A stretch of DNA of 63,065 nucleotides, the filler included, from Basidiobolus ranarum (lineage: Eukaryota): NCBI GenBank assembly GCA_040143965.1. It is 41 parts of 41 records of this genome, joined end to end, with 100 filler letters (N's around TTAATTAATTAA, not from the genome) between each part and the next. Parts side by side here need not be neighbours in the genome. Positions count along the whole stretch, not along the records: positions 37,036 to 38,474 come from JASJQH010012062.1; positions 38,575 to 40,013 come from JASJQH010012063.1; 39 more parts are not named here. One strand, given 5' to 3'. The notes below the pieces were generated by a model. That model had not been told where the DNA came from. It saw only the letters and a program-made list of their open reading frames with translations, and did not search any database. Shown in pieces: positions 6,185 to 59,995 of the stretch (position 1 is the first letter of the stretch; each line of letters begins with the position of its first letter). The position numbers were made by a program, and so were the translations under genes.

Positions 6185-6904
6185 GTAAGCATGTTCCTGA
6201 TCTACCTGCACCTAGTATGGCCAGGTTCTTATAAATGCTTTTGCTTTCAGCCATAAGTTGCTTTTCTATTGGTAATGGTCGAGTCTTCTCACCATTACTG
6301 TGAACAAGAATATCATCGAATCTACCAATATACATCCACTTCCCAGATCCAACTGGAGTCTCAGCGAAAAGATCCCCGGTGTGAAACGCGTTCGTTTCCG
6401 GGTTGATGGGTACATCGTAGGCAAGTGCTGGTTGGGAGACAAGTTCGGAATATAGGAAGATAAATCGGACTCTGGTTCTACGATATTGAATATCTGAATA
6501 TGAGGCAACGCTTGCTGTATGGCTTTAGCAGTCTCAATCAATAGAGGATGCACGACTAAGACACTAGCTTCTCCCTCTTCCAAAAGGTGGGTCATTCCAT
6601 CAGAGGAGTTTTTCAAACTTAAGAATAGGGGGATAGCCCGGGTTGTTATCAAAGTATATAACAGCGTACAGTATTCAACACAATTGAGTGAAAGAACTCC
6701 TACCACAGTTTTTTCTTTGATTGGAATTCCATTTTTAGGCCACAAATAGTAACTGTTGTAGATTGTTGAATCGCGGTATTGTTTATATGTGATCTTCTGC
6801 TCATGTCCTTGTGTATCGGTGTAAACGAGCGCCGTTTTGGTAGGGGTATGCTTAGCATGAAAATCCAGAAAAGTATTCAAATTAGTCGGTTGGATACTAG
6901 GCAT
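6185..6904 (-). pseudogene. NRPS-like (A-T-R, carboxylic acid reductase type) adenylation domain with internal deletion and frameshift
   Basis: N-terminal A-domain sequence (TALVY..ITYKQY, RAIPLFLSLKNS) runs, in another frame, straight into late motifs FHTGDLF (A7) and GRFDDILVHSNGEKTRPLPIE (A8); A3-A6 are absent. Confidence 0.75.
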
Positions 6905-7069
6905 TATTTGTCAAGCTAACACTCTCCAAAAAGGAATGCATCTGATATTTATATACTTTTATCTCCTCTCTGGGTTTACAATAATTAATACTGAAATTCA
7001 TTTATTTTCCTAAGAAAACGAAGTGCTACGAAGTAGGAAACCAGAAAATGCACATAGACGTCAGCAGAT

Positions 7070-29333: not shown

Positions 29334-30774
29334 GGCATTCTGTTAGCAGCTAACTGAGGGCTCATAATCTGGTAAAAGTGTTTGGGGCTTTGGAAGTGTT
29401 TGTGACAAGTTTAAGATTTGCAAATTCAACACTCAACTTTGTCTGAATTGAATTATTAATATTGCAAGCTTACTATCAAATAGGATGATTGGATGGGCTT
29501 AGATTGCAACAAACATGCCTGTAAAGCATGAGTGAAAATTCAAGGTGATTTGGGGAGGTTTTGAAAAAATAGTGAAAATTGGAACAAGTGATTATATTGC
29601 TGCTTCTACCAATTAGAGCAATAAACACATGTTTTTTAATGGCAGACTTTAGTGGTAAATATTATGAATATGAAAAAGCTAACTACAAAATAATGCCTTG
29701 CTATTTATCTAATTTCAGCATTCTCACCTAACTAATAATTTTTATATCTTTTACAATAACTTATTTCTTAATAACAAGTTTAAGCTTCAGCTAAAGGTTT
29801 CGTCAAGAGTTTGGTAATGATTTCTCAAGTAGGGCCATAGACAAGTTCAAATATGTCATTCTCTCTTGCTCCTCTAACCAAATGCAGCCTAATATCTATA
29901 TGTTATGTACTAGCATGAAATTTAGGGTTTTAAGCTAATGAAAAACAACTTGGATTATCTTCAAATACAGTAATGGCACATTTTGGCATGTCTCCTAAGT
30001 CTGTAAATAACTTCCTTAGCCACATAGCTTATCATGTATTTGCAGGGGCAGCCTTACACTGTGCTTTTGCTTTGGATAGTGATATGGCTGGTTGCTTCCT
30101 GCAATTCCAGGTCAGTGTCCTATTACCATACAGAGAAGTGTACCAATTTGTTGCTCTATTACCATTAAGGCTCCTTCCCGAGTCAGCATTTCTGTAGCCT
30201 TCAAAATTTTGTGCATCTGGAGTGCCAAAGTTTTCCAGAGCTAGATCTACAGTCCCTCTCAAAAACCTGAATATCTGTTTTACTGCAGTTTTGTGCTTGG
30301 ATCCTGGATCTTTGAGAATTTGGCTTACAGTTCCCTTTGCCACAGCAATGTCTGAATGCGGTCCAAGCATTGTAGACATTGATTACAAACCATGGAGTGA
30401 TAAGGCAACTTCTACTTTGATATGAGTCATTTTGGGCCTTAGCAGGTGAAAATAAGATTACTTTTGCATTGGGCCTCATTGGTATTGATACAGGCTTGCT
30501 TTTCTCCATGATGAAGCATTTTGGAATGTCAAGAACACATCTAGACTAATGCATCATGATTTGCTAATAGAGTTTGTTTCTCTTGATTTGGATTACAAGG
30601 AAAATGCTTAATTCACCTTTATAGGTTGTCTGAATTTGGTTTGATAAGCTGCTTTTTGTCTGATTAAGTGCTTCAGGAGCATTTGTGGCTATGTTCAAGT
30701 CATGCCCATATAGTGCCAAGATAAGGATCCTATTTCTGGTTGTTTTGATGTAAATACTGTGATCTGCTATGCAT
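29334..30774 (-). mobile_element. Copia RT/RNase H relic, PPT, LTR-D (29370-29720) and PBS (29358-29369)
   Basis: KHKTAVKQIFRFLRGT and TWNCRKQPAISLS in ORF 30032..30379; AGTTAGGTGAGAA precedes TGCTGAAATTAG; GATTATGAGCCC follows the LTR. Confidence 0.85.
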
Positions 30775-37035: not shown

Positions 37036-37620
37036 GAAATCTTTTCAAAATTCCACTTGAATATATACAAATCCAATACTTCCAGTCTTTGCATTTGAAT
37101 AAACGCCTAGATGAGTGGATATTGATGGGAGTCCTGGTAAAATATGCTGGTATCTTGATGTTTTCAAGCATTTTCCCTGTTAATTCAAATTTTGCTCCAA
37201 TCTCAAATGGCTCATTCATATTGAGTTTTCCACTATATAGCTGAGAAAGTAGTATTTCAATGTTGTTGAATAGTAAGTGCATAGTGCTTAATGGGAAGCT
37301 CTGGCTCCAGCTGATCCTGTTTAGCAATATAATCTTAGTCTTACGGCTAATACCAACCTTGATTTTAGACTGACTATTTGGTGAATTGATATCAGTGATC
37401 ATATTGAAATCTGACCAGGCTCTCAACAGTAAAATCATGAAGTTTAGTGTTGTATTTGGATAGTTGTAATGCATATGCCTGTTAGAGTAAACTCCATTGA
37501 TTTGACAAAATCTACAGCAAGAAAGTGCATTGTGCCTGCAAAAACCTCCAAGTTTACTGATGGCAGGAGTGTCACCAATATATACAACAATATTAGCTTT
37601 AATGAAATATTTTATTGTCC
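37036..37620 (-). mobile_element. CACTA (tnp2-type) transposase core fragment
   Basis: IGDTPAISKLGGFCRHNALSCCRFC, FPLSTMHLLFNN and IPAYFTRTP..FKCKDWKYW match the GD.PA..K, D.MH and P..F.R.P/FK..EW motifs. Confidence 0.9.
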
Positions 37621-37750
37621 CACTTACCAAATTCTGCACATCATCGCAAAGATCTGTATTTCCAGAGCCAGATATACTGGCAATAAAGCTTAATTTTACC
37701 ATCCAACTGGGTGCACCAGTTGGAAGAGTGCTAAATTTGGAATCTCATCC

Positions 37751-38129
37751 AGTTGAAGTTTATTGTCTTTATCATATTTGTTACCTCTATTGTTATACAC
37801 CTAACTATTTCATATATGACACCTAACTTAGTTAAAATTACTTAGTCAAATATCACTTAACTGCAAATCAGAAAATGTATATTCTATATATATGTGAATA
37901 ATATGAGAATTAGCAATTCCATATTGCAAATTTCAAGCTCATCCAAATTGCCCCAAAAATAGCTTGTTTTACTCCCACAGATGTTTTGAACACAACCCCA
38001 GTGTTATTTTTCTGTATTTCCACCAAAATGTATAAATTCTTTATTTCTGGACAATAAATAATTACCTCAAAAAGCTATTCACAACTCCACTTTTATAAAG
38101 TTCCTCCAAACAGCTCATGTTTGCCAATA
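37751..38129 (+). mobile_element. LTR family A, near full length (~380 bp)
   Basis: Covers the partial copies at 33657-33855, 1-175 and 47807-48060(-). Confidence 0.8.
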
Positions 38130-38752
38130 AAATATGCTGAAGAAGAAAATTTTTCAATGAAAACAATCCAGGATCAAGAAAAACAACCAGAAATTGATGA
38201 AATTTTTCTTTCTCTCACCAGATCCTAATGAGTGAGAAAAACATTGAAAAACCCTCACCTGCAGTCTTCTCAACCAAGCCTGAAGTGGTTTCATTACCTA
38301 AATTGGTACCTGAAGTTGTAGTGCCAGTTTCCCATCTTATGAGATCTAATTGGATGAGATCTCCACCTGATTACAACTCTCACACTAGCCAAAAGGAGTC
38401 TAGTGCTAATATAGCCTTTTCTGATGAACCCAAATCAGTACAGGAGGCTATGGAGAGTCCCAACATGAAGTTTTNNNNNNNNNNNNNNNNNNNNNNNNNN
38501 NNNNNNNNNNNNNNNNNNTTAATTAATTAANNNNNNNNNNNNNNNNNNNNNNNNNNNNNNNNNNNNNNNNNNNNGAAATACAGATCTTTGTAACAGTGTG
38601 AAGAATTTGGTAAGTGGGACAGTAGAGCCTAAACACACTAGCTCCTTTGCTTTTCCTTTCGGTTTACTAACTTCCTGCTCCTTGAGTACTTTGTTAGCTG
38701 CTTTTCTTTCTTTTCCAAGTTGATATTATTGAAATTATTTAGGGAGAAAAAT

Positions 38753-38825
38753 TGCTCTGGCCAGGATTTGAACCTGGGACCTCCTTCACTCTAGCATGGT
38801 GGTCTTACAACTGAGCTACCAGTTC
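38753..38825 (-). pseudogene. tRNA-like sequence in the 3' LTR
   Basis: GAACTGG TAGCTCAGTTG...AGGTC CCAGG TTCAAAT CCTGG CCAGAGC A followed by ATTTTT; intact B box and T arm. Confidence 0.8.
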
Positions 38826-39057
38826 TTGTATGCTATGCCCATATTGCTAGCAAGCCTTAACCTAGTCTGTCAATGTATGGTACTCTGGCATATCAGCTAC
38901 ACAAGCAACTGACTGGCCTTAGACTTTGTGTTCAGATGCAGTCACCATACTCCATATTTTCCTCTTTGGGAATTACTGCTTGTACCACCAGCCACCAAAC
39001 TTTCAACATTCCCCTTCAAGCAGTTTTTCAGATTTAGCACTAACTGGGGCTCATAAC

Positions 39058-39403
39058 TGTTGAAATTAGCATTGCCTAAACACCTATAGAGTCATATATA
39101 GCTTCGTACTTAGTTATCTTATAATTCACTAAGATATTATCAATTATTCTCAATTGGAATTTGCTTAGAATATTTACCAACTTAGAAGTTTTCAGATATA
39201 TAGATTTTTCAAACTTGTGCTAGAAGCCCCAAACTTTGCACACATGTTCCTGGGACCTTCTTTAACATATGCTATATGTTTGTTTGTTTACATCTTGACA
39301 AAACTATAAATGTCAACTTTCTACCCAATATGTCAATAAGTGAAAACCACCAATTCCTCTAATTCTCCAAACCACTTCCAACAGGCTCCCAAATACTTTA
39401 ACA
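39058..39403 (+). mobile_element. Solo LTR family B with exact 5-bp TSD (ATAAC), nested in the PBS of the miniature element
   Basis: ATAAC at 39053-39057 and 39404-39408; TG...CA termini. Confidence 0.93.
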
Positions 39404-39435
39404 ATAACCTATTGAAGTTATTTAGGTAAAAATAT

Positions 39436-39508
39436 TGGTCTGGCCAGGATTTTAACCAGGGACCCCCTTCACTCTAGCAAGGTGCTCTTACCATTGAGCT
39501 ACCAGTCC
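39436..39508 (-). pseudogene. tRNA-like sequence in the 5' LTR
   Basis: GGACTGG TA GCTC AATGGTAA GAGC A CCTTG CTAGAGT GAAGG GGGTC CCTGG TTAAAAT CCTGG CCAGACC A, then ATATTTTT; intact A box and D stem. Confidence 0.8.
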
Positions 39509-40113
39509 TTGTATGCTACACCTTTATTGCTAGGGAGCCTTAACCTAGTCTGTCAATGTATGGTACTCTTGCATATCAGCTACACAAGCAACTGATTGGC
39601 CTTAGACTTTGTGCTCAGATCCAGTCACCATATTCCATATTTTCCTCTTTGGGAATTACTGCATGTACCAAAAGTCACTAGACTTTCAACAGATAATTGT
39701 ATACATCTTTGATATGTTTCATGAATAGGCCTATACTAGCCTAATTACAATTTGCTTGCAAAAACCCTGGATACACCACATGAAAAAAGTCTAGAATCTT
39801 CAGAGTAATGCTTGATTTTTGGTTTTTCCACATTTGCCTCAAATCTAGATGATTTCAGACAAGATTCCACATGGATTCCAAAATGTTAAAATACTCATCA
39901 TCAGAGCAAGTGATGGCAGCTCTGACATTAAGAGTCTTTTGGTTTGCCGGTTTTCCTATGAGATTTCTACTTTCATGGGCCCAAGCAATTTTGGGTTGTT
40001 GTGTAGGCTTATTNNNNNNNNNNNNNNNNNNNNNNNNNNNNNNNNNNNNNNNNNNNNTTAATTAATTAANNNNNNNNNNNNNNNNNNNNNNNNNNNNNNN
40101 NNNNNNNNNNNNN

Positions 40114-40626
40114 ATAAATGCCAGTGTGGCTGAGCGCTCCTATGACCCAAGCTATAAGGGAGTAGGATATGGTGGCGATGGTGGAGGAAGAACAAAGAAA
40201 TACGGGGGTGGTGGTGGTGGTGGTGATTACGACGAATACGATGGGGACGGTCATGGAAGAGGAAAGAAGTATGGTGGTGGTGGTGGCGATGACTATGATG
40301 ATGATGAGTACGATGGGGATGGTGATGGAGGCGACTACAAGCATGGAGGTGGAAGAGGAAGAAAATATGGTGGTGGTGGTGGTGACTATGATGATGATGA
40401 ATACGATGGGCATGGTGACGGAAGTGACTACAAGCATGGAGGTGGGAGAGGCAGGAAATATGGTGGTGGCGGTGGTCGCGGCGATTATGATGATGATTAC
40501 GACGGTGATGACTATCATCGTGGAGGTGGAAATGGAAAGAAGTACGGTGGGGGTGGGGGTGATGATTATGATGGCAAGAAATACGGTGGTGGTCATGGCG
40601 GAAACAACGATTATAACAAATATTAA
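40114..40626 (+). CDS. Secreted Gly/Tyr/Asp/Lys-rich repeat protein, copy 1 (5' truncated)
   Basis: Open frame with six (K/R)K-YGGG units; the missing N-terminus is supplied by the identical sequence at 41391-41552. Confidence 0.88.
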   Translation: MNASVAERSYDPSYKGVGYGGDGGGRTKKYGGGGGGGDYDEYDGDGHGRGKKYGGGGGDDYDDDEYDGDGDGGDYKHGGGRGRKYGGGGGDYDDDEYDGHGDGSDYKHGGGRGRKYGGGGGRGDYDDDYDGDDYHRGGGNGKKYGGGGGDDYDGKKYGGGHGGNNDYNKY

Positions 40627-41344
40627 CTATGTCGATGTGATACAAATTCCCTTTAGACATGCTTTACCATTGATTATACCCAGAGCTCTACTCATACGAA
40701 TAAATCCTTTTTTGGCGTTTAAGTTTAGCTACATCAGTTTACTTATTTGAGGGTCACTCTAACGTTTATCGATTGTCACAAAGCTGTCATTTCTACACTC
40801 TCAAATTATTAAGCAGAAAAGAGGTTTTCTAATCTTATGAATCAGAGTGCATAATCTTGCGTAAATAACTGAAGATATAGGCATAATATAAAATGATAAA
40901 TAACACGCGTTTTCTATATACTCGGGCTATTTCCCACCATCATTGCCATTAAATTCTGGATTATATTGTTTCTTGAATAAATCTGACAGGAATGAGCCAC
41001 GACTAGATGGAATCGTGAATATTGCCAAAACTAACGCTATCAAAAACAATGCGATCTAAACTAACTAGATCCACAATTATAACATCACTCAAGCACTGCA
41101 TTAAATCCAAACACTGAAGCATACTTATTTGTAAATCGGTTGTGTCATGCACCGCAATCATCAAGATTTTAATTAGGGATAGCTTTCTAAGGTATTCTTT
41201 AATGTATGTCTAACTTTGATATTATCATATTGCAGCCGTAGGCACGAGAGTTCAACGTGATATCTGACTGGTTTCTTATTATCACTACCTCAATATGCAG
41301 AGGTTTACTTTCCAATGCTTCTGAATGAGTGACTTCTCTGGAGG

Positions 41345-49342: not shown

Positions 49343-50779
49343 TAGTTTGCTGGTAAAGCATATTGATGTTGTTGAGTTATGTCTAATCAGTCAAATATGT
49401 GCATATGTAGAGACTAAACACAACAAGATTCTTGTATTTTTTGATTCTCATTTCTGGCTGGAATACAAAGCCTAAAATATCTAAATAAAGGCATGCATAT
49501 TAAATCAAATTCCCACAGCAGTAAACCCAGTAATTTGCTATTTGAAAATTGTATTTTTGCTAAAATTGCTGGATATTGAATAATGCATGCCAAATTTGAG
49601 GATCAATATTTTAACATGTATGAATACCACCAAGATACCATCAAGAAACTGCCGTCACACCATCAAAATCCCTGGCAGAATGCCAGCCAGCAATATTGTG
49701 ATGGTTCTATGATGGTTTTGCTATTTTGGAGGGTGGATCCAATCTGGATCAAATTGATTTTATTTTTGTTAGGGATAGTTGCTGCTTACACCCTAGATCA
49801 ACTACACTGTCAAGACCATCAACTTCCAAAATGGCTACTTTGCCCACTATTGAACAACCCTCCACAGAAAATTTGGATAGAATTATTAAAACAAGGGCAT
49901 TGCAGGCAGAACACCATAATGATTTGTATGCAATCATAAGTAAAAACTACAAAGTTGCTATACAGGCAATGACAAGCAATAATGCCTCAATGTTGCAGTG
50001 CTTTGAAGCAACTAGTCAACAGTTAGATAATCACTCAACAATGATACAAGATCTTCAGAATGCTGTACTTGAGCCACAGCAGCATGCTGCTCCCTCCATT
50101 CATTCTCATATGAGATTTTAATCAATCCCACACCATACATATGAACATCACCATGACAATCTAGCAGATCAGAATATATGTTGGACCATTAAGCCTACAG
50201 AACAACCCAAAATTGCTTGGGCACATGAAAGTAGAAATCTCATAGGAAAACCAGCAAATTACAAGACTCTAAGTATCAGAGCTGCTGTCACTTGCTCTGA
50301 TGATGAGTGGCTTAAAACTTTGGAAACTGTGTGGAATCTTGCCCAAAATCACCTGGATTTGAGCCAATCATGGAAAAACCAAAAACCAGGTGTTACTCTG
50401 AAGGTTCTTGACTTATTTCATATGGCTTATCTTGGGTTTTTGCTAGCAAATGGCAATTGGGCCAGTATAGGGCTATTCATGAAACATTTCAAAAATGTAT
50501 TCAATTGTCAACTTTGAAAAGAAAGAAAAGCAGCTAAAGAAGTACTGAAGGAGCAGGAAGTTAATAAACTGAAGGGAAAAGCAAAGGAGCTGGTGAGTTT
50601 AGGCTCTACTGTCCTACTTACCAAATTCTTCACACCATTATGAAGATCTGCATTTCCAGAGTCAGATATACTGGCAAAAAAGCTTAATTTCACCATGGAA
50701 CCAGGTATACCAGTTGGAAGAGTACTAAATTTGGAAGTTTATCCAACACCTGGCACTTCTCAACAAGCCAAAACACCAG
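49343..50779 (+). mobile_element. CACTA right end (49774) and middle of the accessory ORF
   Basis: TIR motif; ORFs 49726..50121 and 50320..50517. Confidence 0.85.
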
Positions 50780-58560: not shown

Positions 58561-59995
58561 CACCATCGACTCAGGGCAAACGCCTAACTGGATCAAATGG
58601 TGAGCCAACTGGTTAGCTCTCCTATTGAGTTGGCTGTAAGTGACATATTCAGAGGTCATAAACTGCAATGCTATATTATCCGGATGAAGGTTTGCCTGGA
58701 CTTCGAACGTTTGATGGAAACATGTTTCATTAACTTCCTTATAGTTAGTTAATTGCGATGGGTAAAAAGAGGTTGCGAGATCATCATTCACAGAAATATC
58801 AATAGACTCAAGTTTTGCATTGATTTCGGAGTTTACTAGGCCCTCAAATAGAATTTTGAAGGAGCGGGATAGGTTTTCAGCATGCTCCATTGTTGCCACC
58901 TTTCTGCTTATCGTTAAAATGTAAGACAAATTGGAATCGTTAGAATCCGCTAATAGACCTAGTGGATACTAAATAACTGATTAATTACAGGTTCAAAAAC
59001 ATTCTTAATATATAATCTCCAACTGATCATAAATTGTTTACATACCTCCGTTCTTTCATTACCAGCAAGTGGTATGAGTTGTAAGTTAGTAGTTTTATCC
59101 GGTGATTGAATACCCGTTTTTACACTCTCACTCGCGGCATCAGTTTTGTAGTCCAAAAGTGAATCAATAAGTGGTGATATTCCCGCCCAGCCTTGAATTT
59201 CTCGCAAGCTACTTTGCTGATAAGATAGAGATGAGATGTAATCGCTATGAATGCTCTGAATCCATTCACCTATAGTGGCGCTACCGTCATAACGGACATG
59301 GCATGGTAGCGTGTTAATACAGGGCCCAATCATAGAGGAAACTCCTTCAAGTTCACTGCTTCTTCCACTCACCGTGTAACCAAAGACAACCTCCTCACTT
59401 TGGGTATACTTTCTCAATAGCATGGCCCAGACCGCTTTAAGAAGAGTGAAAATGGTCACCTTGTTCATTTGAGCAAACTGTGTTATGATTTGGATTGGTA
59501 TCTCTATAAATCCGGGGAGGCGAATCATTCCAGACTCGTCATTTGACGCCTCAAGTTTAGGGAAAGATTCAACATCCAACTGTGAAAGTCGATTTTTCCA
59601 GTAAGCCTTCTCTCCAGCAATAAAAGCAGGCGTGCGACTGTGCAGGCTTGCTATGAAGTGTTTGTAAGGGTATGTTTTGGGGCGAGTTTGTTGATTATAA
59701 ACTGCATGAACATCATCAAGAACTAAGTTCCATGAGATTGCATCTAGAATTCCATGATGCCAGCTGATTACAAGCATACTCTTATTCGTGTCTGTTTCCA
59801 TCAGTGCTAATCTCATGTTGGGTTGACCCAAACTGAAATGATTTTGTTTATCCGTGGTCAAGCATGTAGCAGTGGCTTCCGCGATAGAGTCCTCAGTGCA
59901 GTTGATGTGCAACCATTGAGGAGTGTAATCTCTGATAACCACCTGAAAAAAGGCGACACTACTCTCATTCATCACTGGATTCTGAACAAAGACTG
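58561..59995 (-). CDS. Multimodular NRPS fragment: condensation domain and start of the next adenylation domain; one intron at about 58959-59045
   Basis: WHHGILDAISW, VVFGYTVSGRS, IGPCINTLP; FHQTFE..P...A and TYSQLNRRANQLAH (A1); intron GTATGT...CTAG. Confidence 0.93.

Follow-up and report, generated by a model that had tools for sequence, protein, structure and literature searches.

What kind of retroelement is without genes and carries a tRNA-like sequence in each of its two long terminal repeats (LTRs), and what did this sequence do for the element? The question is raised by a locus at positions 38727–39691 of a 63,065-base stretch of the Basidiobolus ranarum assembly GCA_040143965.1, referred to below as the window. 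Our analysis shows that the locus is very probably a dead copy of a Helenus-type terminal-repeat retrotransposon in miniature (TRIM), a 614-bp, non-autonomous and geneless element of the group named 'TRIMp3'. The window comprises 41 contigs of 1435–1446 bp each (designated c and a number), which are ordered by descending length and joined by linkers of the form N44-TTAATTAATTAA-N44; since the contigs are physically unlinked, their adjacency in the window is biologically meaningless. The TRIM lies wholly inside contig c26 (38575–40013, 1439 bp), and two sequences with which it is compared below, a leader at 29341–29363 and an uninterrupted copy of the repeat into which the TRIM is inserted, are on other contigs, unlinked to c26. 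Both this host repeat and an LTR nested in the TRIM are common to many contigs of the window (BLAST), which places c26 in the assembly's dominant genome.

Structure of the element

A repeat search identified a direct repeat of 282 nt with 89% identity (38727–39008 and 39410–39691), the two copies of which were aligned with MAFFT without gaps and differed in 30 of the 282 columns (10.6% divergence). Read along the minus strand, the order of parts is TTATC, the 5' LTR, GGTTAT, a 346-bp insertion (39403–39058), GTTAT, GAGCCC, CAGTTAGTGCTAAATCTGAAAAACTGCTT, GAAGGGGAA, the 3' LTR and ATATC. The features, which include the primer-binding site (PBS), the polypurine tract (PPT), the two copies of the target-site duplication (TSD) and runs of five T residues (T5) resembling terminators of RNA polymerase III (Pol III), are as follows.

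39692–39696, minus strand: upstream TSD copy, TTATC (supported by an empty-site paralogue with a single TTGTC)
39410–39691, minus strand: 5' LTR, 282 bp, TGTTGAAAGT...AACTTCAATA (repeat search, MAFFT)
39436–39508, minus strand: tRNA-like unit of the 5' LTR, LTR positions 184–256 of 282 (Rfam RF00005, 49.3 bits; ARAGORN, tRNA-Ser(AGA))
39428–39432, minus strand: T5 run 4 nt after the 5' LTR unit, Pol III terminator-like
39404–39409, minus strand: PBS, initial 6 nt (GGTTAT); 39404–39408 doubles as a GTTAT copy of the nested-insertion duplication
39058–39403, plus strand: nested solo LTR, 346 bp, Ty1/copia family, TGTT...AACA, in the orientation opposite to the TRIM (perfect GTTAT duplication)
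39047–39057, minus strand: second GTTAT copy (39053–39057) and remainder of the PBS, GAGCCC (39047–39052)
39018–39046, minus strand: leader or spacer, the first ~13 nt of which are like the leaders after the same PBS on c20 and c8
39009–39017, minus strand: PPT, GAAGGGGAA, adjoining the 3' LTR
38727–39008, minus strand: 3' LTR, 282 bp (repeat search, MAFFT)
38753–38825, minus strand: tRNA-like unit of the 3' LTR, at the same LTR position (Rfam RF00005, 30.0 bits)
38747–38751, minus strand: T5 run after the 3' LTR unit
38722–38726, minus strand: downstream TSD copy, ATATC

Subtraction of the nested LTR and one GTTAT copy reduced the element from 965 bp as found to 282 + 50 + 282 = 614 bp, and once the nested insertion is removed the PBS adjoins the 5' LTR, as the PPT adjoins the 3' LTR. 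Within the 965 bp, read in all six frames, the longest stop-free stretch spans 59 codons, and the TRIM is thus without an open reading frame (ORF). All checkable details of the anatomy given in a first-pass annotation of the window, namely the 282-bp LTRs, the length of 614 bp, the PBS, the PPT, the 5-bp TSD, the noncoding nature and the nested solo LTR, were reproduced.

Insertion site and nested solo LTR

Both flanks of the TRIM aligned to contiguous sequence of c33, with 84% and 89% identity (BLAST), and the alignment across the junction located the unoccupied target in this paralogue of the host repeat:

50505–50509, plus strand: single, unoccupied target TTGTC in the host-repeat paralogue on c33 (junction alignment)

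An uninterrupted host-repeat copy with a single target had been reported in the first-pass annotation, and it is this copy on c33. The TSD is 5 bp long, with TTATC and ATATC identical at four of five positions, and the arrangement TTATC...ATATC versus the single TTGTC is that of a textbook LTR-retrotransposon insertion with 5-bp target duplication. The solo LTR nested in the TRIM, which splits its PBS, has copies elsewhere in the window on c6, c9, c40, c3 and c21 (96%, 95%, 92%, 81% and 79% identity, respectively; BLAST). The host repeat itself (38575–38726 and 39692–40013) was found on at least five other contigs (c33, c17, c14, c23 and c25) with 84–90% identity; none of five ORFs of the host-repeat family, which had been termed CACTA in the earlier annotation, showed a Pfam match.

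tRNA-derived units in both LTRs

The tRNA-like unit begins 183 nt from the start of the LTR and ends 26 nt from its end. When the whole window was searched with the Rfam tRNA model RF00005 (Infernal, gathering score 29 bits), exactly two matches were obtained at E values up to 10, one per LTR, and no stand-alone tRNA-like copy was present in the window outside the LTRs. The 73-nt unit followed by a T5 run that the first-pass annotation had placed in each LTR is therefore confirmed, both units scoring above the gathering score, and the T5 run lies 2–4 nt past each of them. ARAGORN called one of the two units, that of the 5' LTR, as tRNA-Ser(AGA) and left the 3' LTR unit uncalled. Given that both LTRs are copied from one template, the presence of the unit in both implies that the LTR already included it prior to the last transposition. 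No 5S rRNA match was found with Rfam in 38000–40500 at E values up to 1, or in the whole window at E values up to 10.

The two units have been damaged in different places. In the 5' LTR unit box A (TAGCTCAATGG) is intact and box B (GGTTAAAATCC) has a C56-to-A change, whereas in the 3' LTR unit box B (GGTTCAAATCC) is intact and box A is damaged together with the D stem. Among the 21 pairs of the cloverleaf, three are non-canonical in the 5' LTR unit and five in the 3' LTR unit; two of these are broken in both units, namely A3.A70 (acceptor stem) and G31.G39 (anticodon stem), and the other lesions are private to one unit. As the lesions in boxes A and B are each private to one copy, both boxes were intact at insertion, and as A3.A70 and G31.G39 are broken in both copies, the tRNA was imperfect already at that time. 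With no more than 2 of 21 pairs broken in both copies, the earlier suggestion that the inserted element was nearer to an intact tRNA holds.

The anticodon AGA would specify serine; the variable loop, however, has just 5 nt, where cytosolic tRNA-Ser carries a long extra arm. Minimum free energy (MFE) folding produced no cloverleaf for either unit, and the stability was no better than that of shuffled sequences (z = -1.06 and +0.21). The LTR unit is a tRNA-derived pseudo-gene and not a working tRNA. A functional tRNA gene was accordingly ruled out on the basis of the 3/21 and 5/21 non-canonical pairs and the conflict between anticodon and variable loop, and a stand-alone SINE2 (a short interspersed element, SINE, with a tRNA-derived head) was ruled out by the position of the unit within a 282-bp LTR and by the presence of a PBS and a PPT.

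The two LTRs differ at 9 of 73 positions in the tRNA-like unit and at 21 of 209 in the rest of the LTR (Fisher p = 0.66). The unit thus decays like the rest of the LTR, as neutral decay predicts, and this has no bearing on function. The first-pass annotation had proposed to ask whether the 73-nt core is more conserved than the remaining LTR: between these two LTRs it is not, and two copies that decay after insertion are uninformative in this respect. In view of the 10.6% divergence of the LTRs, the copia LTR that splits the PBS and the damage to the 5' box B and the 3' box A, the TRIM copy is inactive and old.

Priming site and a probable copia helper

The restored 12-nt PBS (GGTTATGAGCCC) is the exact complement, without mismatch, of positions 29–40 of the Escherichia coli initiator tRNA metY, which comprise the G-rich side of the anticodon stem and the loop with the anticodon CAT and two bases beyond. 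Eukaryotic initiator tRNAs have the same anticodon stem-loop. Allowing one mismatch or none, the PBS motif occurs four times in the window, where 0.27 occurrences are expected, and none of 100 shuffles reached four. The three further sites, each of which immediately follows an LTR end ...CA and precedes an ATG by ~20 nt, are:

12194, plus strand: PBS on c8
13683, minus strand: PBS on c9
29358, minus strand: PBS on c20

Downstream of the PBS on c9 are frames with the Pfam domains DUF4219, zf-CCHC, Pol_BBD and gag_pre-integrs, and the c9 element is the start of a Ty1/copia gag-pol region; its LTR is of the same family as the solo LTR nested in the TRIM (BLAST). The leaders that follow the PBS are alike in the TRIM (CAGTTAGTGCTAA), on c20 (TCAGTTAGCTGCTAA) and on c8 (CAAGCTAGCTATTAA), so that the resemblance to 29341–29363 described in the first-pass annotation is real, although that leader sits on an unlinked contig. 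The body of the TRIM LTR gave no BLAST match to the copia LTRs of the window at an E value of 1e-3. The LTR tips of TRIM and copia elements are alike, opening with TGTTGAAA and closing with CCyAAATAnyTT..A, the tips of the TRIM LTR being TGTTGAAA... and ...CCTAAATAAyTTCAATA. Taken together, the shared PBS, the similar leader and the similar LTR tips point to mobilisation in trans by a copia element that resides in the same genome and is primed from the anticodon. A search of the ESM Atlas with a fragment of copia integrase yielded nothing but generic eukaryote/Streptophyta clusters. Mobilisation by a copia-like element, as put forward earlier, is thus probable, with the PBS present on c8, c9 and c20 and copia domains on c9.

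The c20 contig (29334–30774, minus strand) contains, in this order, two pol-like ORFs, a PPT, an LTR of ~350 bp, a PBS, a leader and an ATG; neither of the pol-like ORFs showed a Pfam match. The LTR of c20 has internal sequence on both sides, which reflects either an LTR-internal-LTR array in tandem or a path taken by the assembly through an LTR that is shared.

Comparison with Helenus and other small RNA-bearing elements

[quoted passage not shown] The first-pass annotation had implied that a tRNA-bearing fungal TRIM was new; this does not stand, since the same design, including the type of PBS, the length of the TSD and the dependence on copia, is that of the published Helenus elements (PMC10886601). 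These were screened at under 1000 bp and reported at 311–1263 bp, their box A reads TRGCY...YGG and their box B GGTTC, and in fungi they have 5-bp TSDs and a PBS that pairs with the anticodon loop of a tRNA, in most cases tRNA-iMet-CAT (PMC10886601). They have the PBS region and internal sequence in common with Copia elements and differ from them in the LTRs, and the tRNAs predicted in them mostly show an isotype conflict, calls of tRNA-Ser-AGA being common (PMC10886601). An insertion of a SINE2 into an ancestral LTR has been proposed as their origin, and most of the 'extra' tRNA genes of rust fungi are LTR-borne pseudo-tRNAs (PMC10886601).

In line with this description, the c26 TRIM is short and geneless and has boxes A and B in each LTR, a PBS, a PPT and a 5-bp TSD, as for example LTR-1_PTrit does; its PBS and leader, and not its LTR body, are common to Copia elements; its 614 bp fall within the published range of 311–1263 bp; and its pseudo-tRNA has a conflict between anticodon and isotype and, like Helenus-9_PSt, Helenus-2_UVF and Helenus-6_CroRib, which received tRNA-Ser-AGA calls, the anticodon AGA. 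In every structural feature examined (size, tRNA-derived LTR sequence, PBS and PPT, TSD, and anticodon-loop PBS) the c26 TRIM agreed with Helenus. Unlike the published fungal Helenus elements, it is hosted by Basidiobolus (Basidiobolomycota) and is known from a single decayed copy.

Other relatives share part of this design. Cassandra, found in vascular plants, is likewise a non-autonomous TRIM with LTRs that contain a copy of a small-RNA gene with Pol III promoter and terminator (PMC7215508). In contrast to the c26 TRIM, in which no 5S match was detected, Cassandra has a plant host and contains sequence from 5S rRNA (box A / box C), and its PBS is of the tRNA 3'-end type rather than the anticodon-loop type (PMC7215508). 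Ajax of nemerteans resembles the c26 TRIM in having a Pol III promoter fragment in the LTR and 5-bp TSDs, and differs in its partial 5S rRNA promoter, its tRNA-Leu 3'-end PBS and its animal host (PMC10886601). A tRNA-derived sequence with boxes A and B is shared with SINE2 elements, in which it is an internal Pol III promoter at the head; unlike these, which are without LTR, PBS and PPT and are copied by the machinery of long interspersed elements (LINEs), the c26 TRIM has the full cis-acting kit of an LTR retrotransposon. The PBS of initiator-tRNA anticodon type is shared with Ty5 of Saccharomyces cerevisiae and Drosophila copia, which are autonomous and coding, whereas the c26 TRIM is without an ORF. 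Both Ty5 and Drosophila copia are primed from the anticodon region of the initiator tRNA-Met and not from its 3' end (PMC10886601).

Replication model and alternative explanations

As a Helenus-type element, the TRIM would have replicated as a parasite of copia, borrowing Gag, reverse transcriptase and integrase in trans. A 3'-truncated initiator tRNA would prime reverse transcription, in the manner of Ty5 and Drosophila copia, and the tips of the TRIM LTR would mimic those copia LTR tips that are recognised by integrase. By analogy with SINEs and Cassandra, the tRNA-like unit may have served as an internal Pol III promoter, a role that we regard as almost as probable as not; the other functions put forward in the first-pass annotation, a TFIIIC barrier and a source of tRNA-like RNA, are candidate roles. 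RNA would then start at the unit of the 5' LTR, read through a weak T5 run and end at the T5 run of the 3' LTR; in a scheme in which the tRNA-like unit is the R region, R would be the ~80-nt unit, U5 the last ~20 nt and U3 the first 183 nt of the LTR. A usable template RNA must span from the 5' LTR into the 3' LTR, which requires read-through of the first T5 run. In yeast, T5 is a poor terminator for Pol III. A depletion of T runs was considered as a further signature of Pol III transcription and rejected: no T4 occurs between the two T5 runs, but the same is true of 17% of background 233-nt windows.

The strongest alternative, which we consider a serious possibility without favouring it, is that of an ordinary TRIM driven by RNA polymerase II (Pol II) from a promoter in U3, with a tRNA-derived SINE or tRNA retrocopy as a passenger in the LTR of a copia-dependent element. 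The T5 run directly past the unit fits this explanation, as it ends a Pol III transcript inside the 5' LTR, and so does the fact that the unit is no better conserved between the two copies than the remaining LTR; moreover, Kojima 2024 notes that no experiment has validated Pol III activity in Helenus, and proposes an origin by SINE2 insertion (PMC10886601). A passenger is less easily reconciled with the integrity of both boxes at insertion, all their lesions being private to one copy, and with Cassandra, which also holds a Pol III promoter and terminators in its LTRs (PMC7215508) and is the sole validated TRIMp3, with transcripts from the Pol III promoter (PMC10886601).

It is improbable that the locus is a one-off, that is, one copia derivative with an internal deletion or a chance LTR-like duplication with a tRNA pseudogene, without a propagating family. 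Such an origin would account for the failure to find a second copy of the LTR in the 59.5 kb of contig sequence or in the metagenome and viral collections scanned, a silence that is weak because these collections are unlikely to contain the host fungus. The LTR body has no relationship to the window's copia LTRs (no BLAST match at E 1e-3), which excludes a simple deletion of those elements, and both the clean 5-bp TSD with its empty-site paralogue and an internal region of just 50 bp, pared to PBS, leader and PPT like that of established TRIM families, speak against a one-off. That the LTRs spread functional tRNA genes, enlarging a tRNA-Ser(AGA) or tRNA-Thr-like family, is very improbable: the 5' LTR unit is recognised by ARAGORN and Rfam, and a small number of Helenus families may code for tRNA-Thr or tRNA-His (PMC10886601), but A3.A70 and G31.G39 are broken in both copies and hence were so at insertion, the serine anticodon AGA stands against the 5-nt variable loop, and MFE folding at z = -1.06 and +0.21 gave no cloverleaf.

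Returning to the Helenus-type TRIM, several observations weigh against this assignment or against Pol III as its polymerase. The two TSD copies mismatch at one of five positions, and the LTR terminates in TA instead of the usual CA. The PBS match was scored on a bacterial initiator tRNA instead of the tRNA-iMet of the host. A multi-copy family is assumed, and the 282-bp LTR had no second match (BLAST) in the 41 contigs, the 59.5 kb of which are repeat-rich. Patterns made from a U3 22-mer and from 25 nt of the tRNA part gave zero exact-pattern matches in metagenome-contig and viral-contig collections, which is weak evidence, as a fungus of the Basidiobolus type is unlikely to be represented there. 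Unless the T5 run after the 5' LTR unit is leaky, Pol III would halt there at ~80 nt, and the model of a genomic RNA made by Pol III is weaker for it. Finally, the proposed placement in Helenus was made from the published description of the features of the class.

Distribution and significance

Helenus comprises 113 families in Pucciniales, with others in a few Agaricomycetes, in animals and in Selaginella (PMC10886601). The fungal hosts are Pucciniales and three Agaricomycetes in the text of that study, two of the latter appearing in its Table 1, which contains no fungus outside Basidiomycota (PMC10886601). Relatives of hosts already known served as the starting point of that search (PMC10886601), and early-diverging fungi were therefore probably unscreened. 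Judged by titles and abstracts, no tRNA-bearing LTR element of Basidiobolus was found in the literature, and the c26 TRIM is probably the first sighting of a Helenus-type TRIM in Basidiobolus, outside the published range of Helenus.

The Basidiobolus host would extend Helenus and TRIMp3 past Dikarya and bears on whether such chimeras had a single or multiple origins. We put forward, as a speculative and rather unlikely extension, that Helenus-type TRIMs arose independently in Basidiobolomycota, an early-diverging phylum distant from the Basidiomycota in which fungal Helenus were described, when a Pol III unit derived from a tRNA was fused to the integrase-recognised tips of a copia LTR present locally, and that the tRNA-like unit would be the R region of a retroviral-style genomic RNA made by Pol III through a leaky T5 run. 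If this were true, tRNA-LTR chimeras would evolve repeatedly and convergently wherever copia elements with anticodon priming are active. The c26 TRIM is also a compact case for a question that concerns Helenus as a whole, namely whether Pol III transcribes these elements, and how a full-length template is made despite a terminator after the promoter unit in both LTRs. For annotation, it serves as a warning that tRNAs predicted in such genomes can be LTR-borne pseudo-tRNAs.

Other features of the window

On c25 (37037–37744, minus strand) we found an open frame of 236 aa without a Pfam domain, for which the protein collection contains one relative, an unnamed protein of 352 aa with 54% identity. 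An open frame on c27 (40166–40750, plus strand) consists of repeated units of 58–126 nt that are rich in GGT and in GAT/TAC codons (Gly/Asp/Tyr-rich) and has no Pfam match. Fragments of non-ribosomal peptide synthetases (NRPS) were identified with Pfam on two contigs, a Condensation domain on c39 (58962–59993, minus strand) and an AMP-binding domain on c5 (6269–6910, minus strand). The best matches of the c39 Condensation ORF are B. ranarum proteins with 69% and 52% identity, and its other matches, nearly all of them bacterial or unnamed, show at most 35% identity and at most 32% where they cover more than half of the query. The AMP-binding ORF of c5 has a single match, from B. ranarum, with 61% identity. 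These two fragments, on contigs unlinked to c26, point to Basidiobolus as the probable host lineage and away from a rust. The G+C content of c39 and c5 is 41%, compared with a window average of 36%.

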